In this document: one piece after another, positions 3,123 to 48,720 of the stretch
How positions within the stretch are numbered: position 1 is the stretch's first letter
How the letters are laid out: the number at the start of each line of letters is the position of its first letter
Virus record (IMG/VR): IMGVR_UViG_3300020048_000136
Strand: one strand, 5' to 3'
Length of the DNA stretch: 64,000 nucleotides
Source of the DNA: a virus
Translations under genes and position numbers: made by a program
The notes under the pieces: generated by a model
What the model was told of the DNA's origin: nothing
The model's database searches: none
The model's input: only the letters and a program-made list of their open reading frames with translations

Positions 3123-4577
3123 TTATAAATTTAAGGTTAGTAAATCTCTTTTAAAGTGTCTAAGCGTGTAGTCCTTCTTCTTGGTAACAGCCTTGTAAAT
3201 CATTGGCTCAATCCCTCCCTCAGAGAATACCCAATAAACATCATTCTTCAGCCTATCCTTTGTCGTCATCCTGTCCCGTGACTGCCAATAGCTTGTTGCG
3301 CTAAAGTCAATATTAAAATAAACAAGGCAGTCGGCTTGCTTCAGCGATATACCTTCCCTGCCCGAAACAATCTGAAGAGCAATTGATTTGTCCGTGTCTT
3401 CGAAGACATTAAGTTCAGTTGTTAGGTCATCACCGAATACCTTCTTCAGTACATTTAGCTCCTCAATGAACTTATAGAAGATTCCAATCTTCTTTCCGTT
3501 AAAGTAAGAGCGGATGAAGTCAGCCTTGGAGGTATCTATTATCATTGAATTCCCACTCTCAAACTTCACCGTGCCTGAGTACATTTGGTGTAGCTTCATC
3601 ATCAACTTCACAGGAGTATCTCCCAAGATAACCTCCTCCTTGCCTTCAATAACCAAGTCCTTGCGCAGGTTGGCAGTTAACTTATAAGTTAAGTCGCTCA
3701 TGCGAACCTTCAATACAGTCTCAATTGTTTGAACTACAAATCCCGCATCCTTTTGAGAGTACTGAATAGTGTATGGCTTCATCGCCTGTAGGATATCTTC
3801 GCTACCGTGAGAGTAATCCCTCATGAACAATCCATTTATCTTCTTCTCCTTCACATCCACATACCTGTCACAGAATCTGTAGAAATTAGAGAACTCATTG
3901 AATGGATTATTTGGGATGCCATAAACTTGATGATACATCTGAGAGTACGATTCGGGTGTTGGAGTGCCTGACATCAGTATAACCTTGGGTCTGAACCTCT
4001 TGACAATGTCATGGATGCTCTTCGCACGTATACTCGGCTTGGGGAATGCACCCATAGAGTGTGACTCATCGCAAATTACCACATCCCACTTAGTTTGTGG
4101 TATCTTGTGCAAACTTTCATAGTTTACTACGTGCAACTCAAAGGATGGATTTAAGAGGTTGTAATCACTTATGATGGACGACATAGCCTTCTTCTTCGTT
4201 ACGAAGAGAACGTGCGCCACATCCAAGGAATCGCATATCCCAAGACTTGTTAAGGTCTTTCCTGTTCTCACCTCCATGGCAAGGAGCAGAAATCCATGCT
4301 TTCGGATGACCTCTGCTCCACTTTTAATTATCTCCTTCTGATATTCTCGTAGTTCCACGTTGCTTATTTTAGGGTTGCTGCTGTAGTATTCGATGCTATT
4401 TAAAATCCTGTGTGTATACTTTGGCTCATCCACGTACTTCCTATTCTTGGTGATGGTCGTTCCCTTCTTTGTTGTCTTCACGATATCATACTCAGATAGC
4501 ATAACATCACGAAGCAGCTTGCAATACTGAACCATGTCCTCATTTGAGTACCCTATTGTTCTGTTTATTATATCCAT
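3123..4577 (-). CDS. SNF2/DEAD-like superfamily 2 helicase
   Basis: Walker A EVRTGKTLTS, DExH box VICDESH, motif III MSGTPTPES, and C-terminal helicase motifs SGREGISL and QSRDRMTT. Confidence 0.8.
   Translation of the reverse strand: MDIINRTIGYSNEDMVQYCKLLRDVMLSEYDIVKTTKKGTTITKNRKYVDEPKYTHRILNSIEYYSSNPKISNVELREYQKEIIKSGAEVIRKHGFLLLAMEVRTGKTLTSLGICDSLDVAHVLFVTKKKAMSSIISDYNLLNPSFELHVVNYESLHKIPQTKWDVVICDESHSMGAFPKPSIRAKSIHDIVKRFRPKVILMSGTPTPESYSQMYHQVYGIPNNPFNEFSNFYRFCDRYVDVKEKKINGLFMRDYSHGSEDILQAMKPYTIQYSQKDAGFVVQTIETVLKVRMSDLTYKLTANLRKDLVIEGKEEVILGDTPVKLMMKLHQMYSGTVKFESGNSMIIDTSKADFIRSYFNGKKIGIFYKFIEELNVLKKVFGDDLTTELNVFEDTDKSIALQIVSGREGISLKQADCLVYFNIDFSATSYWQSRDRMTTKDRLKNDVYWVFSEGGIEPMIYKAVTKKKDYTLRHFKRDLLTLNL
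3395..3408. repeat. palindrome TGTCTTCGAAGACA (inside the SNF2 helicase ORF; read as VFED)
   Basis: Exact match read from the sequence. Confidence 0.95.
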
Positions 4578-4578
4578 C

Positions 4579-4914
4579 CTATCTCCTTTTTATTTTACCG
4601 TCACAACTTATGCATCGCATATTTTTAGAGTATCCCTTTATTACGGGGTGGTCACATTCACATTCATGACTACTTTTATAATCGCCCTTGAACATATTCT
4701 TATAAGCTACCGTTAACTCAGCGCATATCTCATACATTTCATGGTCACGAAAATATTCTATTATCAACTGAAAGTATTCTTCGTCAATTGGGACATCGGG
4801 GTTATGCCCGAATACAATAATGTCGCTCTCTATTATGTCATCCATGGTTGCCTTATTGGTAAGCAGGTTGTAGGAGTTAATCATTGCCAAGTGCATTGTC
4901 TGAGTCTCGTTCAT
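4579..4914 (-). CDS. hypothetical protein with C-terminal Cys4 zinc-ribbon-like motif (111 aa)
   Basis: Track ORF. C-terminus reads CECDHP...CISCDGK. Confidence 0.55.
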   Translation of the reverse strand: MNETQTMHLAMINSYNLLTNKATMDDIIESDIIVFGHNPDVPIDEEYFQLIIEYFRDHEMYEICAELTVAYKNMFKGDYKSSHECECDHPVIKGYSKNMRCISCDGKIKRR

Positions 4915-4918
4915 AGAT

Positions 4919-7336
4919 TTATGTTTCTGAGGTTATTGAATCTGTATCATGCCTTGTACGAATCTTCATCCACCTTCCTGACATATCTCTACCATCCTCA
5001 GGCATAACACCCTCTTTGAACATAGCATATGAGATAAGCCATTTGTAGAATCGTGTACGGGATATGGTCATCTTTGACCGTGAACCATAGTCGGGGTATT
5101 CGTTTATAAAGTCGTTGAATAGTTCTTGCTTATAAAGTTTAACACCTGCTTCTAACAATCTGTTAGGCTCAGTACCTTCAATAATTCCGCACCATTCAAT
5201 GAATTCATGTGATGACTCTGCTGATAGTTGGCGAATCTTAAGGTTTACAAACTTAGCTTTAACCAAGCCTGTATTAAGGTATCCCTGTAAGCAGCTAATC
5301 ATGTAGTTGTCGAATTCGCACCAATCGTCATCATTCCAATCCCCGAACATCAGTTTCCCGAACTCATCAAGAGGAGTGAACTCCTTTGTGTAATACTGAT
5401 GAAGTTCAAGTTCCCACTTCCTACGTGCAAATGAATTACCTGCACCCTTAATAGCATAGTTGGTTGTGATGGCAATTTTCGGTGATTTGCTGAATGGAAT
5501 CTTGATGGCATCTTTGTTCTTCTTCTCCAATGTCAGCCCCTCGGTGACAACGCTGAACAGACGTTCAAAATCGAAGTGCTTCTTAACGTCATCGAATACA
5601 AGAATCTGAGTGTCTGCCGATACTAACTGATAAGCGAATGACCGCTCAAAAGTAAATGACTTTCCGTCAATAGTTACAACCTTCTTCATGTGACTCAATG
5701 CATTCATAAAGATTCCCTTTCCTGTGCCACCCTCAGGGTTATCACTTATAACCTCATCGTTAAGAATTATAGCAGGGCAGAATGAAAGATTCTTATGTGC
5801 ATGAAGCATAAACCCAATTGTACTATGCATTGAATCTACTCGGCTCTTATCGCCACCACAGATGTTTGATATAAACCTCTTGTAGTCGCAGGACTTTGTA
5901 ACCTTACAGATGTTGAACACCCTGTCAATTACGTGGTCTTTCCAAACATAACCGCCAAGGTCAAGATAGTCTATCGGTATAATCTCATCCTTTGAAACCA
6001 TAACAGCGCAGTTCTTGTAGTAGATGTAAGCCTCGGTAGCCGTATCAGCAATAAAGTAAATGTCGATTGTGGAAAGAAGAGTCAAGAACTCATCCTTAAA
6101 GAACCGTGTTTGGTCAGCGAAGTAGTTGTAAATCCCGACATCGTCTAACTCAATAACGTATGACAGTATGAAGTCTTTAATTTCCTTCTCTGATGTGTGG
6201 TCAATCAAGTTGTTGGTAACCTTTACAAACACATAGTTCTTGCTACCTTCGGGACAGTACTTGTAAAATCCATTGTCCTCAAGGAAGTGCTTGAAAAGTA
6301 TGTGGATTATCTGAATCCTACCCTTATCATTCTTAGACCAAAATATTTGCTTTGAGTTCTCCTCTTCAACTTTTGACAACACGGAATCAATAATATCGCT
6401 ATCCAAATTTGACTCCTGTAATTGGTAGCGAATCTCTTTTTTTGATACACCCCTCCTCAATTTAGTTTTTATAGCGTTAATCCTTTCTTCATCCTCATAG
6501 TACTTAGTTCCAAAGTTGGCTGTATTAAGATATGCTGAGTCAATTGTTCGCTGTATCTCCCGTGACGTGAAGTCTTCAGAAACATACTGCGTTAACACAA
6601 ATGATGCAAGGCTCTTGGCTACTCCAAAATCATTCATTGCCATTGCCAATACATATGTATTCTGATTGCGCTGCCCCGAAACCATTGGATACTTATGTAG
6701 CCACCATTTTGTTAGGATTTCAACAATCTTGTTCTCGTCTGTAATTGGGATTGTAGGAGAATCTCTGTTCTTGCTAACCTCATTATACGATGTTTCTTCT
6801 ATCGTATCCCAAATCGAACTGTTGATATTGACGTGAGTCCTTGGGTCATATGATTCGTAGCATACTCGGCTGATATTCTTGCTCGTCTTATCGAAGTATG
6901 GAGAGTTAAAATAATTCTCCAACGAATTGAAGTAGTTGAGATGATTTTCTACATCGGGTGGAATCTTAACAAGTATCTTTAGTCCATTGCCCGATGGTGA
7001 AATAAAAATTGCAAATACGTATTTGTTTTTTGAAAGAGTCTCCTTGTCTTGAAGAAGTTCCTTCTGAGTTTGATACCCGTCAAAGTCTAAGCAGATAAGC
7101 CCGCTATGGTCAATTATTGAGTTATCATTCCTCTTGGTAAAAGTTCCGCTAAAGCATATGGCAGGTAACTTCTTTTTCAATTCGTTACGCTCAGATTTAT
7201 TCTTCTCTAATCGTATCTTCTTTACAAGGTCTTTAGATGCTCCCTCCTTTATCCTCTCAAGGATTGTCATGACATCCCTATGGAACGGAGTGGCTGTTTC
7301 TTTTATAGTTTGGAATATTGTAACATTTGCTCCCAT
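4919..7336 (-). CDS. primase-helicase (N-terminal AEP/VirE-BT4734-like primase plus D5-like SF3 P-loop helicase)
   Basis: Acidic primase motif LICLDFDGY near the N-terminus. Walker A NPEGGTGKGIF and Walker B-like ILVFDDV in the C-terminal half. 805 aa. Confidence 0.8.
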   Translation of the reverse strand: MGANVTIFQTIKETATPFHRDVMTILERIKEGASKDLVKKIRLEKNKSERNELKKKLPAICFSGTFTKRNDNSIIDHSGLICLDFDGYQTQKELLQDKETLSKNKYVFAIFISPSGNGLKILVKIPPDVENHLNYFNSLENYFNSPYFDKTSKNISRVCYESYDPRTHVNINSSIWDTIEETSYNEVSKNRDSPTIPITDENKIVEILTKWWLHKYPMVSGQRNQNTYVLAMAMNDFGVAKSLASFVLTQYVSEDFTSREIQRTIDSAYLNTANFGTKYYEDEERINAIKTKLRRGVSKKEIRYQLQESNLDSDIIDSVLSKVEEENSKQIFWSKNDKGRIQIIHILFKHFLEDNGFYKYCPEGSKNYVFVKVTNNLIDHTSEKEIKDFILSYVIELDDVGIYNYFADQTRFFKDEFLTLLSTIDIYFIADTATEAYIYYKNCAVMVSKDEIIPIDYLDLGGYVWKDHVIDRVFNICKVTKSCDYKRFISNICGGDKSRVDSMHSTIGFMLHAHKNLSFCPAIILNDEVISDNPEGGTGKGIFMNALSHMKKVVTIDGKSFTFERSFAYQLVSADTQILVFDDVKKHFDFERLFSVVTEGLTLEKKNKDAIKIPFSKSPKIAITTNYAIKGAGNSFARRKWELELHQYYTKEFTPLDEFGKLMFGDWNDDDWCEFDNYMISCLQGYLNTGLVKAKFVNLKIRQLSAESSHEFIEWCGIIEGTEPNRLLEAGVKLYKQELFNDFINEYPDYGSRSKMTISRTRFYKWLISYAMFKEGVMPEDGRDMSGRWMKIRTRHDTDSITSET

Positions 7337-7874: not shown

Positions 7875-7977
7875 AATTGAAAGTTGTTTTTGTTTTTGTG
7901 TCCCAAATATTTATAATATAGTGCCGAAGATTGGAACGTACTTCGTCATTATATGGAGTGTCGTCAAAGACAAATCG

Positions 7978-8067
7978 TGGTTGGAATGGGAATCGAACCC
8001 ATACTCCGCAGAAGATACCCCACTTTCGTGGCTCGACTACATAGTGCTGCCATTACACTATCCAACC
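7978..8067 (-). tRNA. tRNA-like gene with a non-canonical, expanded anticodon arm (no assignable anticodon)
   Basis: Minus-strand RNA has acceptor stem GGUUGGA/UCCAACC and a D-arm GUG(U)-AAUGGCA-(G)CAC. The T-arm is AUGGG-UUCGAUU-CCCAU, the discriminator is A, and no CCA is encoded. The anticodon position holds stem UGUAG/CUGCG enclosing 25 nt, which include a CCAC-GAAA-GUGG hairpin. Confidence 0.55.
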
Positions 8068-12603: not shown

Positions 12604-12654
12604 TCCGTTTCATCGTTTACGAATCATCGGTCAGGATACACATCCCAAGACAGA
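12604..12654 (-). ncRNA. hammerhead ribozyme-like element HHR-3 (type III topology, U4C core variant)
   Basis: Minus RNA reads UCUGU-C | UUGGGAU-GUGU-AUCCUGA | CCGAUGA | UUCG-UAAA-CGAU | GAA-ACGGA. Same architecture as HHR-1 and HHR-2, with compensatory changes in stem I and a G.U pair in stem III. Confidence 0.5.
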
Positions 12655-12683
12655 AGGAGTGTCTTCGACGACACCCCAACCCT

Positions 12684-13844
12684 TTATTCTCTAAATTTAA
12701 CTACCTCCTCTTCTCTGAACCATATCCCGCAAGACTTGCAGTAATAGTTCGCAAACCCATCAAACTCCAAATCAGAATAGCAATCAACGCACATAGCGTT
12801 CTCCTCGGTGATATTGAAATCAGTAGGAGTAGTTCCCGTTATGAAATCCTGCTCGGATAATCCCGACATAAAATCAAGTTCGTACCTTACATCAGCATCT
12901 TGGAATCGGGATGGCTTATAAGTAATTTCGGGACGAGTCTGAGGTGTAGGAGTATATTTCGGAGCATAACCCATAATCCTTTCAGTATATGTGCGAAAAT
13001 CCTGCTTGTATGCTTTGTGGAATGTAGCATTGGCGCTTATCATCTTCGGATTGAAGTATAACCAACATACAAGGACATTCCCGTTAGCCATCTTGATAGG
13101 AATCTGCTGCCTCTGATACCAATTGGGATGACCTTCCAACCTATCCAAATCAGTTAGCTTATCATCGCTGACCTTGAAAACATCAACAGCAACATTATGC
13201 CCGATACCTTTGCGATTCACTACATAAGGTAGCCCCTCTATTATTAACGGATACTTATCCTTGGTGACTCCATTGCCGACATAAGTACTCTTGGTAAGAT
13301 ACGACTGATAGTTATTGTATCCCTTCTTCAGAGTCCCGTATACGGCAACCAAATGCTCTTGGAGGACATTGCCCTTTGAGTACCAAATATCGCCTCTCAT
13401 TGACCATAGCTGTTGATTGTAAATCTCGTATGTTTTAGTCTTTACGTTGACCGTGACAAACCTGCATGGGTATTTTGCAAGTTCTTCTTCCCAACCGCTC
13501 CTCGGAATCAATCCTAACTTTTCAGCCAACACTTTGCTGTCAGTCTTTTTGTGAGTCCCGATACCCTGTATTGTACCGTTCATCATGAGCCATTCATCCG
13601 AATTTGCACCGCATTGGAATGGATGAGTATTGTCTTTCCCAATCTTGCCAACCGTAGCATAGCGGAAGTGCGCTATAAATGGTCGGGCTGTATCAAGAAC
13701 CTTAAATTCTGATGACTTGTGATAACTGATACTGTAGTCATCAAGCCATACAACACCCAACCCGTCAGGATTGATTAAGGATGATGTCTTGGCTATCTCT
13801 GTGGACAGCCTCTCATTCGACTTCTTAATGATTATTACACACAT
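12684..13844 (-). CDS. fusion protein: class II (Ntn) glutamine amidotransferase, gamma-glutamylcyclotransferase (AIG2/GGACT-like) domain, and C-terminal zinc ribbon
   Basis: N-terminus MC(2)VIII with HFRYATVG...NTHPF...MMNGTI (GATase-II pattern). Central AVYGTLKKGYNNY...LDRLEGHPNWYQR (GGCT/AIG2 pattern). C-terminus CVDC...CKSC. Confidence 0.7.
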   Translation of the reverse strand: MCVIIIKKSNERLSTEIAKTSSLINPDGLGVVWLDDYSISYHKSSEFKVLDTARPFIAHFRYATVGKIGKDNTHPFQCGANSDEWLMMNGTIQGIGTHKKTDSKVLAEKLGLIPRSGWEEELAKYPCRFVTVNVKTKTYEIYNQQLWSMRGDIWYSKGNVLQEHLVAVYGTLKKGYNNYQSYLTKSTYVGNGVTKDKYPLIIEGLPYVVNRKGIGHNVAVDVFKVSDDKLTDLDRLEGHPNWYQRQQIPIKMANGNVLVCWLYFNPKMISANATFHKAYKQDFRTYTERIMGYAPKYTPTPQTRPEITYKPSRFQDADVRYELDFMSGLSEQDFITGTTPTDFNITEENAMCVDCYSDLEFDGFANYYCKSCGIWFREEEVVKFRE

Positions 13845-13908
13845 GATTAAATTAAATTATGGACAGCCACACCCGTAGATATGACTGCCCTGTTAAACAA
13901 TGAATCGA

Positions 13909-13916
13909 CAAAGATA
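13909..13916 (-). promoter_or_regulatory. Bacteroidota-type -7 box TATCTTTG upstream of the GATase-GGCT gene
   Basis: Minus strand reads GTTTTATCTTTGTCGATTC, ending 64 nt before the ATG at 13844. Confidence 0.5.
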
Positions 13917-13960
13917 AAACATATAATAGACATATGCAAGCATTTTCTAAAATATATTTT

Positions 13961-14419
13961 TTAACAGTAGTAAGGTCTCCCTTTTGTTTGATTCTCGCCA
14001 AGGATAAACTCGTCAAAGAATGTGTAATAACCGCCCCGACTCATCTGAACACCCTCTTGATGTTTCTCAATAATAGTCCTGTTCTGCTCGGATGTCATAG
14101 TTGGGTATGTGTATGCTGTGTAGTACCAACCACCTTCTTCTGCACCGCCATAACAACGCTCGTAGCAGTACTGAACTGTGATGGCAGGATAAACATCGCC
14201 TCCGCAGGATAATACGAATTTGACGGCTGTATCTATTACGTCATCATCGTGTAGATAGGTATCGGAAATAATTACAGCCTCGGCATCCTCTATTAGCTGC
14301 TCAAGATGTTCGGGAGCATGAGTTGATGCATACAGGCATTTGTCCTGCTCGTAAAAACGAGCAACAAACACAACATCTACAGAGCCTTCATAGCCCCGAA
14401 TTGAATACGTTCTTAGCAT
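13961..14419 (-). CDS. hypothetical protein (152 aa)
   Basis: Track ORF. Confidence 0.55.
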   Translation of the reverse strand: MLRTYSIRGYEGSVDVVFVARFYEQDKCLYASTHAPEHLEQLIEDAEAVIISDTYLHDDDVIDTAVKFVLSCGGDVYPAITVQYCYERCYGGAEEGGWYYTAYTYPTMTSEQNRTIIEKHQEGVQMSRGGYYTFFDEFILGENQTKGRPYYC

Positions 14420-14424
14420 ATTGG

Positions 14425-14673
14425 TTAAGTTAAAATGATTACTATTCTTATGTCATTGTAGATTGTGGATGCAGTTACATATCCGCAAGAATCTACGGTC
14501 ATCTTGGCAACCTCGGCATTTATAACATTTGCTATCTCTGCCTTGTAATGCCCTTGCAGGGTGATTTCTGATTTGCTTACGCTTATTGAGTAGAAATACT
14601 CAAGCGGTAAATCCTTGGGAGACAATAAAGCCTCAACCATTTCTAAGTTCTTTATGATAAGATGGTCTTCCAT
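14425..14673 (-). CDS. hypothetical protein (82 aa)
   Basis: Track ORF. Confidence 0.5.
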   Translation of the reverse strand: MEDHLIIKNLEMVEALLSPKDLPLEYFYSISVSKSEITLQGHYKAEIANVINAEVAKMTVDSCGYVTASTIYNDIRIVIILT

Positions 14674-14697
14674 AATATTTGTCTTTAAAGATATTAT

Positions 14698-14943
14698 TTA
14701 TTTATTTGTGATTTCTTCGGCATCAGTCCATGCTGCCAACAGGCTTGGATATTCGTATCCATCGACTAAATCCAATGCGTTAAACGCATCTTCATCCCAC
14801 TTGGTGATATCTTTGTCCATCTGATACTGACAGAATACCGTGGTATCCTTTGTTGCGCTGACTCCCACAACACTTACGACTGAGGTATCATAGTTGGTTA
14901 CAACCATCCACTTCATCGCCATTAAGAGCAAGAATGTTTTCAT
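14698..14943 (-). CDS. hypothetical protein (81 aa)
   Basis: Track ORF. A one-mismatch copy of the palindrome (TGTCTTTAAAGATA) overlaps its stop at 14689-14702. Confidence 0.5.
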   Translation of the reverse strand: MKTFLLLMAMKWMVVTNYDTSVVSVVGVSATKDTTVFCQYQMDKDITKWDEDAFNALDLVDGYEYPSLLAAWTDAEEITNK

Positions 14944-14991
14944 GATTCTATAAATTAGATTAAATTAAACTGTACGGATTATCCGCACATT

Positions 14992-15026
14992 GCAGCTAAG
15001 AGGGGAATCGAACCCCTCACAAGCAG
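14992..15026 (-). ncRNA. isolated tRNA T-arm/acceptor-like minihelix (or tRNA 3'-half relic)
   Basis: Minus RNA reads GUGAGGGG-UUCGAUU-CCCCUC-UUAGCUGCA, a canonical T-loop sequence on a 6-bp stem. No D or anticodon arm can be built upstream because that region is the 3' end of ORF 15030..15296. A 7-bp hairpin follows at 14969-14985. Confidence 0.4.
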
Positions 15027-15029
15027 AGT

Positions 15030-15296
15030 TTATGACCTTAAGAATGCCAATAACTCATCCATGTAGCTAACCTCATCACCATCGTCATTTGTTCGGGTAT
15101 CCAAATCCTCAAAGTAGAGGTATTCAGCAGCCCATTCCGAAAAACGTCCCTTCTGCTCGGCATCCATTGCCTTCCAAAGGTTTTTAGCTTGCGTATTCTG
15201 CCCGTTTGACCTTGAGTCTATGATGTACTCAAAGTAATCGTTGATGCAATCGAACTCGTATGGCTCATACAAATTCCTGTCTGCGAAGTAGTCCAT
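15030..15296 (-). CDS. hypothetical acidic protein (88 aa)
   Basis: Track ORF. Confidence 0.55.
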   Translation of the reverse strand: MDYFADRNLYEPYEFDCINDYFEYIIDSRSNGQNTQAKNLWKAMDAEQKGRFSEWAAEYLYFEDLDTRTNDDGDEVSYMDELLAFLRS

Positions 15297-15298
15297 GC

Positions 15299-15469
15299 CT
15301 ATTCAGTTTTAGATTGTTTGTCCTCAGGATAATCGACTCCGATTACCTTGCCGTGTTTGCACACCTTATTGTACCACTCCGTGAAGTGCGCATCGTCACG
15401 GAATGTTTTATTGTAGATTGAATACGCTCCATCGTTTGATTTCACGGTGCATACATAAGTGAATTCCAT
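15299..15469 (-). CDS. small hypothetical protein (56 aa, below track cutoff)
   Basis: ATG at 15469-15467 and TAG at 15301-15299. Translation MEFTYVCTVKSNDGAYSIYNKTFRDDAHFTEWYNKVCKHGKVIGVDYPEDKQSKTE. Exactly fills the gap between two track ORFs. Confidence 0.4.
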   Translation of the reverse strand: MEFTYVCTVKSNDGAYSIYNKTFRDDAHFTEWYNKVCKHGKVIGVDYPEDKQSKTE

Positions 15470-15473
15470 ATTG

Positions 15474-15680
15474 TTACAGTTTAGTGATGAAGAAAAGAGT
15501 TGAGAACACCATATAGGTGAAGATGTGCCACTTCAGATTGCTCCATGATTTCGGCTCATCTGATAGGATTATTACAGCTATTGCCAATGCAGATAGCGTT
15601 ACGAATGTATATGTCCTCATCCCGTAGAAGAATGACGGGAGAATTAAGCAATAGCTTAATATTACGTGCTTGATGTTCAT
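15474..15680 (-). CDS. small membrane protein (68 aa)
   Basis: Track ORF, largely hydrophobic, with two or three TM-like segments. Confidence 0.5.
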   Translation of the reverse strand: MNIKHVILSYCLILPSFFYGMRTYTFVTLSALAIAVIILSDEPKSWSNLKWHIFTYMVFSTLFFITKL

Positions 15681-15682
15681 AT

Positions 15683-15973
15683 CTATTTGATATTATATTT
15701 GTCTAACAATACTTTGAATCCGTGGCGCACTGCCTTTACATAAGCATCAGAGAGATGCCCGAATGTAGCAGGATTGCTCATAAGGATAGAGGTGATAGAT
15801 ACGTAGCGCATCTCTATCTCATGGAGCAGAACCTCGTTAGTCTCACCCATTACGATAGCATTGATAATCTCGGGAGCAGTACTACACTTCCTGCAATTGA
15901 AGACTCCCGTCCTTTTGGATTCGATGTGCCGATTGGCAATCTCGCTCTGCAAAGCACTCAATCTGTTGCTCAT
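15683..15973 (-). CDS. hypothetical protein (96 aa)
   Basis: Track ORF. The start lies 21 nt downstream of HHR-1. Confidence 0.55.
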   Translation of the reverse strand: MSNRLSALQSEIANRHIESKRTGVFNCRKCSTAPEIINAIVMGETNEVLLHEIEMRYVSITSILMSNPATFGHLSDAYVKAVRHGFKVLLDKYNIK

Positions 15974-15994
15974 AGCTTTTTGGTTTTAAAGGTT

Positions 15995-16048
15995 TCCGTT
16001 TCGACTGTTTTCAGTCTTCATCAGCGAAGATACACATCTTCGGACGGA
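15995..16048 (-). ncRNA. hammerhead ribozyme HHR-1 (type III topology)
   Basis: Minus RNA reads UCCGU-C | CGAAGAU-GUGU-AUCUUCG | CUGAUGA | A | GACUG-AAAA-CAGUC | GAA-ACGGA. All core residues are present: C3-A9, G12A13A14, A15.1-U16.1 and the GUC cleavage triplet. One extra nt lies between A9 and G10.1. Confidence 0.75.
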
Positions 16049-16072
16049 GGGAATGTCTTTAAAGACAATCCC
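16049..16072 (-). terminator. 12-bp hairpin abutting the HHR-1 5' end (contains the TGTCTTTAAAGACA palindrome)
   Basis: GGGAATGTCTTT/AAAGACAATCCC with one mismatch. Lies 10 nt after the stop of 16083..16379. The T-run is on the plus strand only. Confidence 0.45.
16054..16067. repeat. palindrome TGTCTTTAAAGACA (hairpin upstream of HHR-1)
   Basis: Exact match. Confidence 0.95.
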
Positions 16073-16082
16073 TTTTTGCGTA

Positions 16083-16379
16083 TTATTTTACGTATACTTT
16101 ATACGTTTTGCCCGTTTTCTTCGAAGTGCGCAGGTAATAAACACCGCCCTTGCTCCCTGTATAAAAGGTTTCCCCTCCTATCACTTGATAAACTTTTGAT
16201 GTCTTTGCTGTTGCTTTGCCCGTATCAGCTATTGTGGTAACCTGACCGTTTACCATCTTGTAATGTGGCGGCTTTTGAGCCTTTACCATAACTCCACTAA
16301 GAACCAATACGATGATTCCGATTACTAATGCAACAGAGATGTACCTGTCGCTTGAATTCCTTCTGTCATAATTTGTCAT
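16083..16379 (-). CDS. membrane-anchored basic protein (98 aa)
   Basis: N-terminal TM helix VALVIGIIVLVLSGVMV. The basic C-terminus TGSKGGVYYLRTSKKTGKTYKVYVK resembles viral basic-adaptor-type repeats (low confidence). Confidence 0.55.
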   Translation of the reverse strand: MTNYDRRNSSDRYISVALVIGIIVLVLSGVMVKAQKPPHYKMVNGQVTTIADTGKATAKTSKVYQVIGGETFYTGSKGGVYYLRTSKKTGKTYKVYVK

Positions 16380-16401
16380 AAGACTTAGAATTTAAAAGAT
16401 T

Positions 16402-16455
16402 TCCGTTTCGACTCTTTAGAGTCATCATCAGCGAAAGCACTCACCTTCGGACGGA
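16402..16455 (-). ncRNA. hammerhead ribozyme HHR-2 (type III topology)
   Basis: Minus RNA reads UCCGU-C | CGAAGGU-GAGU-GCUUUCG | CUGAUGA | U | GACUC-UAAA-GAGUC | GAA-ACGGA. The core is identical to HHR-1, and stems I and II carry compensatory differences. Confidence 0.75.
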
Positions 16456-16475
16456 GGGAGAGATTGCGCTCTCCC
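16456..16475 (-). terminator. 7-bp hairpin abutting the HHR-2 5' end
   Basis: GGGAGAG-attgcg-CTCTCCC, 10 nt after the amidoligase stop. Confidence 0.45.
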
Positions 16476-16485
16476 GTGATTTAGT

Positions 16486-17487
16486 TTAGAAATTTATGTC
16501 AGCTAACTCATCGACAATACCTTCGATTGAATTTCGCCTTGCAGCATTGCTGACTCCTCGCTCGTAAAGACTCCTCATCTGCATACGTGGGTCAACAAAC
16601 TTTTGCACCTCTGTTCCGATTTTGCCCGTCTTAATCATCCTGTGGAATGCCTTGGACAATTCCATGATTTTCTCGGCTTTGTCAACATTGCCATTATACA
16701 TGGAGATAATGATAGGCTTTATGACCTTCAAAAATGATGCATAGGATGTCCGTGGTTTATTGACGGATATATTTACAATCTCGTACATCAATTCGTATCT
16801 GCGCATCATCTGCTTTACAGACTCGAATCGGGAGATGACTCTAAATTCAACTCCGCTTGTCCCGTCAGGGAATCTGACGTACTTTGCGAGATTGTATTTG
16901 GTATGGTATCCGTTGAACCATTGCGCCCTGTCAGATATTGGCAGCATAGTAAGGTTATGGCTGCAATAGCTGTTTGTCAGACGATTGCGAAACAATGCGA
17001 GGAGAATAGCTGAGTTTAAGCGAATCTTGCTGAGTAACTCTTCCCCGTCCATACCTACGCAAGTAATTGTGGCATGACCTCCGCAGTTATTACTGCTTGG
17101 GCTGAATCTGTCATCAATAATACGCTCTGCTTTGTGCATCATGTCGTAAACTTTATTCCTCCATAAACCCGACGGGAGCAAAGGTAAAACGTGAGTTACT
17201 GCCTCGTATCCGCAGCTATTATCTTGCTCAAATCCGCAAAATAATTCATATTCACGAATCGCATCCCTATGAAGTTGATTCTTTTCAACTTCGAATCCGA
17301 TTGTAAATTTGGATGTCACTTCGTCACCCAAAACAGTCACAGCATTTGCTTGTATTACAGGTTTTAGGCTTTCGACATCAGCCCTATAGGCTTTATTCAA
17401 TTTGAACGGTGACGGTTTCGCGTGATAGGAACACACTCTTCCTCGTGCTCTCTCGCCTGAGGTGAGATAAACCACTTCTTTTTTCAT
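16486..17487 (-). CDS. putative amidoligase (glutamine synthetase-like COOH-NH2 ligase family)
   Basis: Motifs IGFEVEKN, GYEAVTHVLP, CGGHATI and GVEFRVISRF match, as recalled, the GxExE / E..T / H.H / EFR pattern of the phage and plasmid amidoligase family. Confidence 0.6.
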   Translation of the reverse strand: MKKEVVYLTSGERARGRVCSYHAKPSPFKLNKAYRADVESLKPVIQANAVTVLGDEVTSKFTIGFEVEKNQLHRDAIREYELFCGFEQDNSCGYEAVTHVLPLLPSGLWRNKVYDMMHKAERIIDDRFSPSSNNCGGHATITCVGMDGEELLSKIRLNSAILLALFRNRLTNSYCSHNLTMLPISDRAQWFNGYHTKYNLAKYVRFPDGTSGVEFRVISRFESVKQMMRRYELMYEIVNISVNKPRTSYASFLKVIKPIIISMYNGNVDKAEKIMELSKAFHRMIKTGKIGTEVQKFVDPRMQMRSLYERGVSNAARRNSIEGIVDELADINF

Positions 17488-17588: not shown

Positions 17589-18224
17589 TTACAAAAATCC
17601 TTGTAGGAATTCAATCGCTGCCTGTATTTCGGATGCATTGTTTGTTGTTTTCAATTCCCCTGACTCTGTCACTCTTACAGCGACATTCTTAACATCATTT
17701 TTCCAAGTGAGGACAAATATCGCCTTCTCCCTCGTAACTGAGGGTGTTCCTTCTCCCTCTTCTCCCTCTTCTCCTTCTCCCTCCTCTGCCTGCGCTGCTT
17801 GCTGCTCCAAGGCTTTAGCGTATCTCAGCAGTCCTTCAATTGTGCGCTCTGCATCATCACCGTTATTCTCGGCAATAGTGCAGTCACGTTTAAATTTGGT
17901 GATAACCTCAGGTTTCACTTCCTGTAGCTTACCAACTTTCAGCATCTTATAGGCAAACGATTTCTGCCATCCGAATACCTTATTGAAGATGTCTTCCGAT
18001 GTCCAAGCTATTCCCTCAGTTGTCAATGTGTTAACTCCCTCCTCTGAGGTGAACCAAAGCATCGCTTTCAATACTAACTCGCTCAACTCAACCGATTTGT
18101 CGAATTTCTGCTTCTTGGCATTCTTTATGCCTGTGTTCAATATTTCAATTGCACTCAGGTTAATTGCCTGACGTACTGTTGCATTCTGTAGGAATGCTGA
18201 TTCAATTGCTAATAAATTGCTCAT
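17589..18224 (-). CDS. hypothetical protein with a Glu/Gly-rich linker (211 aa)
   Basis: Track ORF. Contains a possible HTH (FGWQKSFAYKMLKVGK) and the acidic low-complexity tract EEGEGEEGEEGEG. Confidence 0.55.
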   Translation of the reverse strand: MSNLLAIESAFLQNATVRQAINLSAIEILNTGIKNAKKQKFDKSVELSELVLKAMLWFTSEEGVNTLTTEGIAWTSEDIFNKVFGWQKSFAYKMLKVGKLQEVKPEVITKFKRDCTIAENNGDDAERTIEGLLRYAKALEQQAAQAEEGEGEEGEEGEGTPSVTREKAIFVLTWKNDVKNVAVRVTESGELKTTNNASEIQAAIEFLQGFL

Positions 18225-43134: not shown

Positions 43135-46100
43135 ATGACCAATATAACGAGAACATTCATTACAGGCAGAATGAATAAGGTTGTCGATGACCGCCTTATC
43201 CCCAATGGAGAGTATATTGATGCCCTTAATATTCGTATGGGTTCTGCCGAGAAGTCAGATATAGGAGTGGTATCTAATACTCTTGGGAATACAAAGCTCT
43301 CATTCTTAATGTTTGAGGGAATCCCATTAAGTGATGATGCACGTTGTATTGGTTCTAAAGGTAACGGGAGCAAGGAGACTATCTATTGGTTTGTGCATGA
43401 CCCATCATTCCCTCTTGGGGCTACAGGTAAACTTGACATGGTGGTGTCACTAAACACGACTACATCAATACTGACATACCATCTCATAACAATTGATGAT
43501 GGGGGTGGCATAAACACTACATTGAATTTTAATCCACTATACACAATTACAGGTATTGACTTACTTGATGATATGCTATTTTGGACTGATGACTATAATC
43601 CTCCACGAAAGATAAATATTACAAAAGCGTATCCTATTGGTGGGATAGGGACAGACCCATTAGAGGCTGAGGAAATTCTTGTTATAAAGAAACCGCCTAT
43701 TGAGTCCCCACCTGTACAAGTACTATATACAGGAAATGAAGATAATTTTCTACAGGAACGATTGATATGCTTTGCATATAGGTATCTGTACGAAGATGAT
43801 GAGTACTCTGCTATCTCTCAGTTTAGCGCACCTGCATTTATCCCAAAAGCATTTAATTTTAGTGTAGACAGCTATCTGAATGAGGGGATGGTAAACTATG
43901 GCAATGCAGCTATTATATCATACAATACAGGGAGTAAGTATGTTAAGGGAATAGACATCCTATTTAAGGAAGCGGATAGCAATATTATAAATGTAATAGA
44001 GAAGCTCAACAAGAAGAACATGGGTCTTGTAGATAATACAGTATATACATACTCATTTGCAAATAGCAAGATATTTACCATACTGCCTGACTACGAGTTA
44101 TTAAGACTATTTGATAGTGTTCCATTATTGGCAAAGGCGCAGACAATTATGGGCAACAGAATTATGTTTGGTAACTATGTTGAGGGATATGATTTGATTG
44201 ATAAGTATGGGAATCCTTCAAGGTTAGATTACTTTACAGACCCAATCTCTGAGGAGATAGGCGTAACATCATTCTCAAATACATTTGATGAAGGGAGCTA
44301 TAGTATTGATGGAGTTAAATTAATAACTAACTCAATTATAAGCATTGACCTTACAGGATATGAACTTAAATCTAATTCGTCAATTACAATTGACTTAAGA
44401 TTTGAGCATAGCGATTGGTCAGGTATAGTGCCACCTCCATACCCAACTGATGTAACTGCAAATACAGACTTAACGTTCCCATTTATTTTGCCAAGGGATT
44501 ATTCCTCTGTACATGAAATGGTTACAAGTGATGAGTTCCTATCTGTGGTAGGTACTGTCGCTAACATAAAACCGATGTCACTTGCTTGTAATGGGGGGAC
44601 TTGGACTGACTTCTTTAATTGCAACCTTCCAAATAATCTTGGAGGATTATATAAATCAGATAGTGGAATAGATGGACTTACCCAACCAATAAAGATTACA
44701 TCATCTACATCAAGTAGCATAATAGAGATACAGCTTTTAGCAGCAGTATATGTTGATGACTTAGTTTCTCCGACTGTTACTAAGTATGAATATTATAAAG
44801 CAAACTATGCTAATACGACATTCCAAGAGATTTCAACTCCAAGAAGCCTTCACAGTAATAGGGGATATGAGGTTGCTATCGTATATATGGATGATTTCTT
44901 ACGCTCATCCACAGCATTAGTTAGTTCCGACAATACGGTTTCATTCCCTTGTAGTGCATCTGATACCAAGAACAGTATCCGTGTTACTATACCAACAACG
45001 CAGATTGCGCCTTATTGGGCAACACGATATAAGTTTGTTATAAAGCCCGATGAGCATACGTATGAAACTATATATAGCAACATATTCTTTAATGACCCCA
45101 AAACAAATTCATCATTCTTTTTATTAGATGGTGAAAATTCTCAAAAGGTAGAGAAGGGGGATAGGTTAATTGTAAAGGCTGATACTGAAGGAGCTACTAC
45201 ATCATGTGTGTACGCTACAGTACTTGATAAGGAGGCACAAATAGAGGGGTTTATAGAACCTGTAGATGGGGAAGGTAATGTTATAGTTGTCCCTTCAGGT
45301 GTTTATATGAAGTTAAATGCCAATGACTTTAATACAGTAAAGGGCGATAATGCTATAATAGACCTGCATGAGAAAAGTGCTGTAGCAGATTATGATTCTT
45401 GGTTTTATGAGGGTAGAAATTATCCTATACTTCATTATCCTGTTAGTTTTCTTTCAGGGTCAACTGTAATCCCCATAGCGATACCACAGGGTAGTATTAT
45501 AAAGCTATCATATAAGTTTGAGCGTAAGGGTACAGGTGGTGGTGATAATGCGTGTGAAAGGCGTAACTATACATTAGATAAGACACTTGTCGCATCAGCT
45601 CCATATTTAAGTTTTAAGGCTTGGTGGGATGGGGATAATGTACAGAACATATTAAATACAGGTACTGCTGATATTGGAGGAGGTGAATGCCCTCCCGATA
45701 ACTCATATGATATTACAATAGCAACAAATCCTAATGATATTAATACTTCATTATGCACTAACTATTGGAGATTCTTTGAAGACCCAATAGACGGTCGGAT
45801 GTATCTAATGACTACAGGGACTAAGAGATGTACAGGAGATATACTTATAATAAATGCCAAGAAAAGGAAGTCTTATGTAACGGCTCACATAATTATCTTC
45901 ACTTCAAGCGGAACTGTTATATTTGAAACAGAGCCACAAGATGCATCCCCTGACATATTTTTTGAGAATGAAGAGTCATTTGCTATCTCATCAGATGGAG
46001 AGCATATGGGTAATGTACAGAATCAAGACTTCTTACTTAATCAGAACGGGATAGTAGATACGGGATTCTTTAATTGCTATGCATTTGGCAATGGAACAGA

Positions 46101-47760: not shown

Positions 47761-47792
47761 AAAGCTAAAAGCATAAATTAAACAATAAAACT

Positions 47793-48710: not shown

Positions 48711-48720
48711 CAATAAGAAT

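Follow-up and report, generated by a model that had tools for sequence, protein, structure and literature searches.

A type III hammerhead motif between genes of a crAss-like phage operon: a likely self-cleaving element with an abutting hairpin and an extra core nucleotide

HHR-1, an intergenic element of the window (the whole 64,000-nucleotide stretch of viral DNA analysed here), is almost certainly a genuine self-cutting hammerhead RNA, judging from its sequence. We estimate at roughly three in four the probability that it is a type III self-cleaving hammerhead, of a variant with an extra A or U and a 5-bp stem II, that processes a polycistronic leftward mRNA independently of the host. The window holds three units of hairpin and hammerhead, all on the minus strand between minus-strand genes. 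Their sense is that of the leftward, replication-side operon, home also to the primase and helicase genes, of a crAss-like phage whose host probably belongs to the Bacteroidota. The three units probably cut the long mRNA of the phage into gene-sized pieces. Gene-flanking phage hammerheads have been known since 2011, and HHR-1 is a well-supported further example with some new details, namely the hairpin module, the variants of stem II, the occurrence of a family member in a cultured phage, and modules within which recombination breakpoints fall.

Read on the minus strand, HHR-1 presents its elements in type III order: 5' strand of stem III, H17, stem I, CUGANGA, stem II, GAA and 3' strand of stem III, with stem III open (Table 1). 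This agrees exactly with the initial annotation, which had recognized all type III elements together with one extra nucleotide after A9, and whose description of the layout as sTRSV-type is apt. HHR-1 and its paralog HHR-2 keep every one of the 13 conserved core positions, which are invariant across the extra-base subfamily although its stems vary freely. The core of HHR-1 contains a single insertion, the extra A. Both closing pairs, A15.1-U16.1 (A15999-U16044) and G10.1-C11.1 (G16016-C16003), are invariant in alignment A1. The minimum-free-energy fold of the isolated 54-mer is the exact three-way junction (-15.8 kcal/mol, z = -2.4). When 146 nt of native context are folded, the complete hammerhead lies at most 0.1 kcal/mol from the minimum for both HHR-1 and HHR-2. 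The native-context minimum of HHR-1 exchanges stem III for a CGUC/GAUG pairing, so some molecules may misfold. Loop 1 (UGUGUA) and loop 2 (AAAA) fit, at the level of sequence only, the UNmYN and RNnA halves of the loop 1-loop 2 tertiary motif of natural fast hammerheads (defined in PMC2632901).

Table 1. Positions of the hammerheads, their parts, the adjoining hairpins and the neighbouring genes in the window.
Feature	Position	Strand	Remarks
333-aa gene	16486..17487	minus	no family match; 3' end followed by hairpin-2 and HHR-2
Hairpin-2, GGGAGAG-CGCAAU-CUCUCCC	16456..16475	minus	7 bp; adjoins HHR-2
HHR-2, paralogous type III hammerhead with extra U	16402..16455	minus	predicted cleavage 16450/16449; 74.0 bits with the family model
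98-aa gene	16083..16379	minus	N-terminal hydrophobic segment, phrog_16207; between HHR-2 and HHR-1
Hairpin-1, GGGAUUGUC-UUUA-AAGACAUUCCC region	16049..16072	minus	upstream of HHR-1; 9 bp, internal U.U mismatch, 4-nt loop
HHR-1, type III hammerhead, 54 bases	15995..16048	minus	sequence, fold, descriptor, family model, covariation
HHR-1 stem III, UCCGU/ACGGA	16048-16044 with 15999-15995	minus	
HHR-1 C17 of the GUC site	16043	minus	predicted cleavage between 16043 and 16042
HHR-1 stem I, CGAAGAU/AUCUUCG	16042-16036 with 16031-16025	minus	loop GUGU, 16035-16032
HHR-1 CUGAUGA core	16024-16018	minus	
HHR-1 extra A between A9 and G10.1	16017	minus	
HHR-1 stem II, GACUG/CAGUC	16016-16012 with 16007-16003	minus	loop AAAA, 16011-16008
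HHR-1 GAA	16002-16000	minus	
A/U-rich leader, AACCUUUAAAACCAAAAAGCU	15974..15994	minus	21 nt, from HHR-1 to the ATG (15973-15971) of the 96-aa gene
96-aa gene	15683..15973	minus	HHR-1 in its leader; homolog directly after the post-333-aa hammerhead in L055
Hairpin-3, GGGGUGUC-GUCGAA-GACACUCC	12656..12677	minus	8 bp including one G.U; 1 nt before HHR-3
HHR-3, third copy, after the GGCT gene	12604..12654	minus	43.7 bits with the family model

As a chance control, the hammerhead descriptor was run on 200 dinucleotide shuffles and matches were counted per 64-kb window. The shuffles produced 0.095 matches per window when the stems had to reach 4/3/3 bp and 0.005 when this minimum was raised to 5/4/4 bp, against two matches in the real window, with stems of 7/5/5 bp. 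A family-specific covariance model gave HHR-1 a score of 78.6 bits (E = 3e-20), the top background match in the window reaching 9.2 bits. Loose descriptors for the other topologies (type I and type II) returned weak short-stem matches in the window, consistent with chance, and a scan for sigma-70 promoters and terminators revealed nothing specific at the HHR-1 locus.

The Rfam Hammerhead_3 model (RF00008) yielded no hammerhead match in the whole window at its gathering threshold, and no match in a permissive search of 251 nt (E<=10). On a 64-nt slice it aligned to HHR-1 over the full length, treating the extra A as inserted, at 31.7 bits, the gathering score being 48.5. The initial annotation had named a covariance-model score below the family threshold as evidence against its reading, and the score is indeed below it. 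However, just 1 of about 25 clear family members (12 loci) reaches 48.5 bits; the threshold misses nearly the whole family and is therefore not diagnostic for HHR-1. Since most of the phage subfamily escapes this curated threshold, ribozyme counts in viromes are probably underestimated.

HHR-1 belongs to a large and uniform family present in viral contigs, a compact sTRSV-like phage subfamily. Pairing within it was assessed by a non-circular test, in which the pattern GTGT-N7-CTGATGA-N12-16-GAAAC was searched with no pairing demanded. Among the 136 matches obtained, stem I pairs at all seven positions in 111 (chance about 0.001) and stem III at four or more of its five positions in 112. In alignment A1, 99.7% of the cells are paired and double changes are seen at 14 of the 17 pairs, compared with 32-49% of paired cells in register-slide controls; alignment A3, made of 41 hammerheads from relatives of this phage, is 98% paired. 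Stem II was mis-registered by MAFFT in the combined alignment of both subfamilies (A2), which was kept out of the pair counts and of model building. Stem III is nearly constant in the family (NCUGU or NCCGU). Of 135 members, 133 have a loop 1 (read as UGUGUR) that fits UN3YN, and of 76 loop 2 sequences 74 end in A.

The extra base after A9 is found in 24 family members, where it is U (19 cases) or A (5 cases) and never C or G. In CChMVd(+), an extra A10 at the same position leaves the ribozyme active with a moderate loss of rate, A10U is faster, and A10C or A10G is detrimental (PMC3705267, PMC1636495), so that the initial annotation was right that this viroid tolerates such a nucleotide. U and A, the only extra bases of the family, are also the two that experiments showed CChMVd to tolerate. 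Across the subfamily it is coupled to a lengthening of stem II from 4 to 5 bp, and in roughly 40% of family members a U.U or A.A replaces the G10.1-C11.1 pair. We found no published description of either architecture, that is, of an extra U or A with a 5-bp stem II or of a U.U or A.A in place of that pair. Family members are also present in Patescibacteria genome bins. In a scan of the genome collection, real family members stood at 21 of 120 loci among the matches listed, the rest being mostly chance. A single hammerhead is present in a cultured elemo phage, within the leader of an operon's first gene.

The two other copies of the window differ in their state. HHR-2 departs from HHR-1 at nine positions, none of them in the core: all are loop, extra-base or pair-preserving differences, and they include two double compensatory changes (in stem I, A-U is replaced by G-C; in stem II, G-C is replaced by C-G). 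HHR-3 has the core CCGAUGA, with a private change of U4 to C at position 12623, and a stem II made of a U.U followed by UCG/CGA; this copy is probably impaired. Its orthologs behind the GGCT gene of eight related contigs have the same U.U and 3-bp stem II, and all carry CUGAUGA.

The conserved unit consists of a stop codon, an abutting hairpin, the ribozyme, an A/U leader of about 21 nt and an ATG. At HHR-1, 10 nt separate the stop of the 98-aa gene (16085-16083) from hairpin-1, whose 3' arm ends right at the first nucleotide of stem III. The initial annotation had placed there a 12-bp hairpin, after the stop of the upstream gene and without spacer to the ribozyme; its location is upheld, but it has 9 bp with a U.U mismatch rather than 12. 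The distance of 21 nt given for the interval from HHR-1 to the start codon is correct. Family members likewise lie between genes and on the same strand as these, at a median of 34 nt from the previous stop and 23 nt from the next ATG, which falls at 10-40 nt in 76 of 86 cases. The 32 nt upstream of the ribozymes have an average folding energy of -10.9 kcal/mol (controls, -3.3), and the upstream hairpin ends at most 1 nt from the ribozyme in 60 of 89 family members and in 40 of 44 of this phage lineage.

At least 16 related phages have hammerheads at these gene junctions as well. One follows the homolog of the 333-aa gene, the syntenic position of HHR-2, in 16 related contigs, and one follows GGCT in eight. 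A hammerhead is missing from the syntenic region of MW202828, the closest relative in GenBank, indicating that the element is dispensable for this type of phage; neither the insert nor a hammerhead is present there between the 333-aa gene and GGCT, and this region is variable across relatives. Searches of cultured phages with the HHR-1 locus (megablast and blastn) returned nothing relevant, apart from one chance match of 24 nt in a Proteus phage, and the single match in the first 50 kb of Cellulophaga phage phi14:2 (20.8 bits, inside coding sequence) was judged to be due to chance. No relatives of the 98-aa protein were found among viral contigs, and the distant homologs recovered by protein search have no hammerheads nearby, for which reason we rejected the idea that the ribozymes travel with the 98-aa gene. 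Purifying selection as a reading of the 54/54 identity of HHR-1 in the related contig L258 was also dropped, because the whole flank is 100% identical and the identity is not evidence of constraint.

In the mRNA-processing reading that we favour, the ribozyme would fold during synthesis of the polycistronic RNA and cut 3' of C17. The upstream RNA, with the 98-aa gene, would be left with a hairpin-UCCGUC end carrying a 2',3'-cyclic phosphate, hairpin-1 becoming its 3'-terminal structure once cleaved. The downstream RNA, with the 96-aa gene first, would start with a 5'-OH, followed by the folded ribozyme body and, 21 nt further on, the start codon. The cistrons would be uncoupled, insulated from upstream sequence and furnished with defined, protected ends, without a host nuclease. 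Double cleavage at HHR-2 and HHR-1 would release an RNA of 407 nt (16449 to 16043). By analogy, the hairpin and the 5'-OH may have a stabilising role, and HHR-1 activity may affect both stability and translation of the RNAs. The self-cleavage reading is strengthened by the two additional copies, the covarying family, the synteny and the conserved hairpin-ribozyme-leader module. Against it stand the Rfam score below threshold, the slowing of the CChMVd ribozyme by an extra A, the alternative native fold and the lack of the element in MW202828.

More tentatively, the whole module of about 120 nt, from stop through hairpin, hammerhead and A/U leader to start, may act as a punctuation mark independent of host nucleases, giving a hairpin-protected 3' end with 2',3'-cyclic phosphate upstream and a structured 5'-OH leader downstream. 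The modules being dispersed repeats, they may also serve as joints for the gain, loss and swap of cassettes between related phages. We consider this combined role possible rather than probable.

It seems unlikely that the modules are mainly recombination linkers, in which repeats provide joints for insertion, deletion and swap of small gene cassettes and RNA cleavage is secondary. T4-type phages have promoter-stem-loop cassettes to which such modules can be likened. Aligned with L258, the window shows 96-100% identity as far as the 3' end of HHR-2 and once more starting at hairpin-1; in the interval, identity of the 98-aa gene drops to 64%, and L258 possesses an additional unit of leader, 73-aa gene, hairpin and hammerhead. 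An extra unit of about 0.5 kb distinguishes the loci L079 and L104, with breakpoints within the hammerhead repeats, and in L055 the 333-aa gene is followed by a hammerhead and the 96-aa homolog, without the 98-aa gene and the second hammerhead. The variability between the 333-aa gene and GGCT, with MW202828 devoid of insert and hammerhead, points the same way. However, recombination is expected as a by-product of any dispersed repeat, and linkers would leave unexplained the strict catalytic core amid freely covarying stems, the loop motifs for tertiary docking, the extra base that is always U or A and the fixed spacing to the start codon. The distant homologs of the 98-aa protein without hammerheads further indicate that the ribozyme is not carried with the gene in general. 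Recombination at the modules is compatible with mRNA processing, and the two are not exclusive.

We think it improbable that HHR-1 is a catalytically dead or very slow relic, kept as a 5' leader, a 3' end structure or a protein-binding element. The lowered activity of CChMVd with an extra core nucleotide, the low Rfam score and the competing fold of equal energy are in line with such a relic, as are the slowness of some core-variant phage hammerheads and the U4 to C change of HHR-3, which is probably disabling and suggests that copies can decay. Nevertheless, an element kept for its structure only could do without CUGAUGA, GAA, the H17 rule and docking loops, whereas HHR-1 and HHR-2 retain all 13 core positions, which are invariant in the extra-base subfamily while the stems vary, and the extra base is confined to the two nucleotides that permit activity.

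Circularization of the excised 407-nt RNA is still less probable. Ligation would turn it into a circular mRNA, as in viroids and retrozymes: its 3' UCCGUC>p end would pair again with ACGGA of HHR-2, and either a reverse hammerhead reaction or an RtcB-type ligase would seal the joint. The stems III of HHR-1 and HHR-2 are identical (UCCGU/ACGGA), so that the excised RNA can rebuild a complete nicked hammerhead, and hammerheads of the family frequently come in pairs with a spacing of about 0.5 kb (L009, L114, L089, L258). Perreault et al. had raised this possibility, but they looked for circular or spliced products of tandem phage hammerheads and detected none (PMC3088659). With a stem III nearly constant throughout the family, compatible ends arise automatically and are not evidence for circles. 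Moreover, many family members are single, as in the cultured elemo phage, and the 407-nt RNA contains a stop codon and has a length that is not a multiple of three, so that no obvious gain from circular translation results. Finally, a chance resemblance in an A/T-rich intergenic region can be set aside: CUGANGA does occur 76 times in the window and loose descriptors find a few weak matches elsewhere in it, but this reading is refuted by the shuffles, the 136-match pairing test, the covariation and the family-model score, and the module is kept in more than 100 loci.

For the mRNA-processing reading, the family yields concrete predictions on the role that gene-flanking hammerheads, known since 2011, may have for phages. 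The fixed module of hairpin, ribozyme and leader of about 21 nt predicts specific RNA ends, and natural 'mutants' are at hand for comparison (the U4 to C change of HHR-3, extra-base versus canonical forms, and forms with U.U in stem II). In the cultured pair Flavobacterium phage elemoE 6-9C (NC_055854.1) and Flavobacterium sp. BAL314, where a family member with predicted cleavage between 18146 and 18145 (minus strand) lies in the leader of the first gene of a leftward operon, 5'-OH mapping and ribozyme-dead mutants are feasible. The modules also mark mosaic breakpoints, which bears on the movement of small accessory genes between phages, and for synthetic biology they are natural counterparts of ribozyme insulators.

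The role proposed for HHR-1 can be likened to that of the RNase III sites of phage T7 early mRNA and of the RiboJ insulator in engineered operons. In T7, these sites are intercistronic hairpins at which the polycistronic mRNA is cut, and the resulting units end in a stable 3' hairpin. There, a host enzyme cuts within the hairpin, whereas the predicted cut of HHR-1 is autocatalytic, lies 6 nt past the hairpin and would produce a 2',3'-cyclic phosphate and a 5'-OH. RiboJ combines an sTRSV-derived hammerhead with a hairpin and raises transcript abundance about 2-fold (PMC6206723). Like HHR-1, it is an sTRSV-like type III hammerhead just before a translation start, and it trims upstream RNA and leaves a structured 5'-OH leader. 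RiboJ is engineered, with its hairpin downstream of the ribozyme, where it exposes the RBS, in contrast to hairpin-1, which lies upstream and would stay on the upstream cleavage product.

In architecture, HHR-1 has the same permutation as the sTRSV(+)/CChMVd-like type III hammerheads (RF00008), with stem III open and stems I and II capped, and the same core (C3-A9, G12-A14, the GUC site, A15.1-U16.1 and G10.1-C11.1). Its loop 1 resembles UGUGCUU of sTRSV, and CChMVd(+) shares the extra nucleotide between A9 and G10.1. Unlike these, HHR-1 resides in a dsDNA phage, within an mRNA and not in a circular RNA replicon, and its capped stems are very short (6-7 bp and 5 bp); across the subfamily, the extra base is coupled to the change of stem II from 4 to 5 bp.

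The hammerhead clusters described by Perreault et al. in 2011 in prophages and phages flank genes, showed cleavage both in vitro and in E. coli, and have been suggested to cut long phage transcripts into gene-length mRNAs; in haloviruses HF1 and HF2, a hammerhead lies 13 nt before a start codon of a polycistronic early transcript for which a 5' end has been mapped close by (PMC3088659). As in those clusters, where several hammerheads on one strand surround single genes or short blocks of varying identity, the window has three minus-strand intergenic copies, of which HHR-2 and HHR-1 flank the 98-aa gene, and relatives show the same arrangement. The 2011 examples are largely type II, with pseudoknot tertiary contacts, and come from Clostridium, Agrobacterium and Azorhizobium prophages. 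In contrast, the HHR-1 family is uniformly type III, with loop-loop motifs, an abutting upstream hairpin and a fixed leader of about 21 nt, and it occurs in a crAss-like, Elemovirus-related lineage and in Patescibacteria genome bins.

The minus-strand sequence of HHR-1, a type III hammerhead motif, was re-read as UCCGU-C-CGAAGAU-GUGU-AUCUUCG-CUGAUGA-A-GACUG-AAAA-CAGUC-GAA-ACGGA, identical to that of the initial annotation. The latter had described the full set of conserved hammerhead positions in type III order, with one extra A (16017) between A9 and G10.1 as the sole deviation and a spacing of 21 nt to the ATG of the downstream 96-aa gene, all of which held. The hairpin described as abutting the 5' end of the motif (hairpin-1) is indeed present and contiguous with it, but its stem has 9 bp rather than 12, with a single U.U mismatch, and is capped by a loop of 4 nt; the 98-aa gene terminates with its stop codon 10 nt before this hairpin. 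Folded alone, the 54-mer gave exactly the three-way junction as its minimum free energy (MFE) structure (-15.8 kcal/mol, z = -2.4). When 146 nt of native context was folded, the MFE structure exchanged stem III for a CGUC/GAUG pairing, the complete hammerhead fold lying +0.1 kcal/mol above it for HHR-1 and for a second copy, HHR-2, and +2.6 kcal/mol for a third, HHR-3, in an energy model that takes no account of tertiary contacts. On the opposite strand, a 172-aa ORF starting with GTG overlaps the 96-aa and 98-aa genes in antisense and runs across HHR-1; since the genes on the other strand leave this region intergenic and a conserved RNA module occupies it, the ORF is most likely spurious. Also in plus-strand reading, hairpin-1 is followed by TTTTT (GGGAATGTCTTTAAAGACAATCCC-TTTTTGCG) and resembles an intrinsic terminator for antisense transcription; a terminator scan did not report it, and no such run is present at hairpin-2 or hairpin-3.

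Coordinates of the features discussed (L-numbers, related viral or metagenome loci)
Feature	Sequence	Position	Strand	Remark
HHR-1	window	16048..15995	minus	
HHR-2	window	16455..16402	minus	intact; extra U
HHR-3	window	12654..12604	minus	core CCGAUGA (U4 to C); U.U-closed stem II
Hairpin-1	window	16072-16049	minus	abutting
Hairpin-2	window	16475-16456	minus	
Hairpin-3	window	12677-12656	minus	abutting
Abutting hairpin	L035	565-593		
Abutting hairpin	L025	4000-4028		
Abutting hairpin	L056	3222-3250		
Hammerhead with replaced G10.1-C11.1	L053	12286-12336		
Hammerhead with replaced G10.1-C11.1	L056	3171-3221		
Hammerhead with replaced G10.1-C11.1	L096	2353-2403		
Hairpin-1 with TTTTT	window	16049-16080	plus	
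172-aa ORF	window	15722-16240	plus	
tRNA-Ser(CGA)	window	7977-8067	minus	
3218-aa ORF	window	52706-62362	plus	
1541-aa ORF	window	43135-47760	plus	
333-aa to GGCT region	window	12684-17487		compared with MW202828.1
333-aa to GGCT region	MW202828.1 (L133)	45925-48925		
elemoE 6-9C hammerhead	NC_055854.1 (L254)	18099-18151	minus	
Six hammerheads	L143 (JBBTTC010000003.1)	3339-6410	one strand	
Cassette boundaries	window	16380-16401, 16049-16085		compared with L258
Cassette boundaries	L258	940-1300, 1590-1625		
Cassette boundaries	L079	11270-11867		compared with L104
Cassette boundaries	L104	11466-11516		
Further Patescibacteria-bin loci	L156, L157, L159, L166, L173, L190, L191, L197, L217, L220, L222, L228, L231, L253			
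Viral loci tested with RF00008	L009, L014, L071, L079, L089, L055, L113, L036, L048, L118, L112, L132			

A descriptor combining CUGANGA, GAA, H17 and three stems matched the window twice, both times on the minus strand with stems of 7/5/5 bp, while 200 dinucleotide-preserving shuffles gave 0.095 matches per window with stems of at least 4/3/3 bp and 0.005 with at least 5/4/4 bp. We also built a family covariance model from A1, in which 18 members of the subfamily carrying the extra base are aligned without gaps. It scored HHR-1 at 78.6 bits, HHR-2 at 74.0 bits and HHR-3 at 43.7 bits, the best background in the window reaching 9.2 bits. Chance resemblance was excluded. Rfam gave no hammerhead match at gathering thresholds over the whole window, nor at E<=10 in a 251-nt stretch. 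The initial annotation had named a covariance-model score below the family threshold as a refutation; Hammerhead_3 scored 31.7 bits on a 64-nt slice, below its 48.5-bit threshold, in an end-to-end alignment that handled the extra A as an insertion. We did not accept this score as a refutation, since of about 25 clear family members in 12 viral loci a single one passes the threshold. Pipelines that annotate at the RF00008 gathering threshold would overlook the subfamily.

Scans of viral contigs with core-based patterns recovered over 130 loci. Base pairing plays no part in the second pattern, GTGT-N7-CTGATGA-N12-16-GAAAC; among its 136 matches, all seven positions around GUGU were complementary in 111 (chance ~0.001) and at least four of five stem III pairs were formed in 112. 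In A1, 99.7% of cells were paired, 14 of 17 pairs had changed on both sides and the invariant columns were those of the catalytic core; sliding the register reduced pairing to 32-49%. The base preceding GUGU was always U and the following one always a purine, so that stem I can be read as 6 bp closed by a UGUGUR hexaloop. This loop 1 fits the UNmYN motif in 133 of 135 members, and 74 of 76 loop 2 sequences, in most cases AAAA or GAAA, have a final A; in sTRSV, CChMVd and most natural hammerheads these features make the tertiary contact between the two loops (PMC2632901). Stem II occurs as a canonical 4-bp form (51 members), with an extra base ahead of 5 bp (19 members; in 5 others, ahead of 4 bp), and with U.U or A.A replacing G10.1-C11.1 before 3 bp (about 55 members). 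The last form makes up about 40% of the family; C.A is also found at this quasi-conserved pair, only 3 bp and a tetraloop follow, and the putative cleavage-site base of these variants is often A or U rather than C.

The three window copies share one layout: stop codon, about 10 nt, G/C-rich hairpin, ribozyme, A/U-rich leader of 20-22 nt and ATG, with the hairpin ending 0 or at most 1 nt from stem III. The ribozymes of 89 non-redundant family members are on the coding strand, with median distances of 34 nt from the preceding stop and 23 nt to the following ATG (10-40 nt in 76/86). The 32 nt upstream had a mean folding energy of -10.9 kcal/mol, compared with -3.3 for random 32-mers, and the 3' arm of the hairpin came within 1 nt of the ribozyme in 60 of the 89. 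In the lineage of the window phage, the hairpin accompanies 40 of 44 hammerheads, often with the core GUGUC-UUCAAA-GACAC. This near-palindromic core, set between G-rich and C-rich arms, is found in many abutting hairpins. Such conservation exceeds the need of a purely structural hairpin, and the core may be a protein-binding or polymerase signal.

Judged by its genes, the window belongs to a crAss-like podophage: it encodes a BT4734-type primase, a SNF2-family helicase, and a terminase and portal of PHROG families 6681 and 6547. The terminase is 76% identical to that of the uncultured phage MW202828 and 45% to those of Flavobacterium elemo phages, with weaker matches, below 60%, to Cellulophaga phages. 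The tRNA-Ser(CGA) gene in the replication block and the giant ORFs in the structural block are typical of crAss-like phages. Genes from 1 to ~23 kb lie on the minus strand and structural genes on the plus strand; all three ribozymes are on the sense strand of the minus-strand operon, and scanning the late region with the A1 model revealed none. At least 20 of the viral contigs that carry ribozymes are related to the window and share its gene order: 211 aa, 333 aa, variable region, GGCT, ..., primase, helicase. In 16 of them a hammerhead comes immediately after the 333-aa homolog, at the position of HHR-2, and in 8 one comes after GGCT, at the position of HHR-3. Their stem sequences are unrelated to those of the window, and A3, an alignment of 41 hammerheads from relatives, is 98% paired with 6 of 7 stem I pairs covarying. 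In MW202828, the closest relative in GenBank, the 333-aa gene lies next to GGCT with no ribozyme between them, indicating that the hammerhead is not essential to this phage type. There the 333-aa homolog is fused into a 574-aa protein with the GGCT gene directly after it; the window has between these genes an insert of ~2.6 kb with small ORFs and two hammerheads. The cultured Flavobacterium phage vB_FspP_elemoE_6-9C carries one canonical family-type hammerhead, unannotated in its record, which ends 15 nt before the ATG of gp59, the first gene of the leftward operon, in the divergent control region. As no upstream cistron has to be separated there, this location supports a function of the hammerhead in forming the 5' end of the mRNA downstream. 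This compact type III family is also frequent in Patescibacteria/CPR genome bins (Saccharibacteria, Paceibacterota, Kaiserbacteria and others), whose hammerhead-bearing contigs may be phage or prophage DNA; one such bin contig has six copies within 3 kb. The analysis establishes sequence, structure, covariation, module and synteny.

Comparison of close relatives revealed mosaic boundaries. L258, a 1.8-kb metagenome contig with three hammerheads within 800 nt, encodes a homolog of the 98-aa protein (61% identical). It is 96-100% identical to the window over the 3' end of the 333-aa gene, hairpin-2 and HHR-2, then carries an additional unit of leader, 73-aa gene, hairpin and hammerhead absent from the window, shows only 64% nucleotide identity over the 98-aa gene, and is 100% identical from hairpin-1 and HHR-1 onward. 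Between two further related loci, L079 has an additional unit of ~0.5 kb relative to L104, with breakpoints inside hammerhead repeats. The compared pairs are otherwise 90-100% identical, and where a cassette diverges or is inserted, its limits are at or within hairpin-hammerhead modules. In another locus, L055, the 96-aa gene homolog comes directly after the hammerhead that follows the 333-aa gene. More distant homologs of the 98-aa gene are without hammerheads, so the ribozymes belong to the phage lineage and region rather than to this gene. The modules coincide with joints of cassette gain, loss and exchange, a pattern which suggests recombination between dispersed hairpin-hammerhead repeats. 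That the modules are recombination linkers, as the breakpoints support, is nevertheless an unlikely full account, leaving the conservation of the core and docking loops unexplained; we regard it as a by-product or second role.

Self-cleavage of the transcript by HHR-1 remains the best-supported reading. Nine positions distinguish HHR-2 from HHR-1; each is in a loop, is the extra base (U for A) or preserves pairing, and the changes include A-U to G-C in stem I and G-C to C-G in stem II. Across the family the extra base is U in 19 members and A in 5, never C or G. The tolerance of an extra core nucleotide in CChMVd, mentioned in the initial annotation, is borne out by published A10 data: according to De la Pena and Flores (2001), as cited in PMC3705267 and PMC1636495, the natural extra A10 of CChMVd(+) moderately slows the rate, A10U raises it 3-4-fold, and A10C or A10G is strongly detrimental. 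The extra bases of the phage family are exactly those tolerated in CChMVd, which argues for selection on catalysis. With intact cores and an extra base restricted to U or A, HHR-1 and HHR-2 are very unlikely to be dead relics. For HHR-3 this is plausible. Its orthologs after GGCT in 8 related contigs share the U.U and 3-bp stem II, but all keep CUGAUGA, indicating that U4 to C is a private change, which probably impairs this copy.

Among the papers that could be searched, none mentions hammerheads together with Flavobacterium, Cellulophaga or crAss-like phages. The element type and its genomic arrangement are already known; new at the family level are the module with its abutting hairpin, the link between the extra base and a 5-bp stem II, the form of stem II with U.U or A.A, the under-detection by Rfam, the mosaic breakpoints and the presence in Patescibacteria genome bins. 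The result is solid and will not surprise a specialist, and the old open question of the purpose of phage hammerheads is now more testable.

From these data we infer cleavage, its end chemistry and effects on stability and translation. HHR-1 would cleave co- or post-transcriptionally 3' of C17, between 16043 and 16042, and HHR-2 would likewise cut at 16450/16449. The upstream product would end in hairpin-UCCGUC>p, and the downstream product would carry a 5'-OH on the folded ribozyme body, which ends 21 nt ahead of the ATG. Cutting at both sites would yield a 407-nt monocistronic RNA for the 98-aa gene. Its circularisation, made possible by the stem III common to HHR-1 and HHR-2, is highly improbable, since stem III is shared throughout the family and circles were sought in published work without success (PMC3088659). 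The proposed mechanism matches that put forward for clustered prophage hammerheads, which cleave in vitro and in E. coli and for which neither circular nor spliced products were found when sought (Perreault et al. 2011, PMC3088659). It also matches RiboJ, an engineered insulator that raises transcript abundance ~2-fold (PMC6206723).
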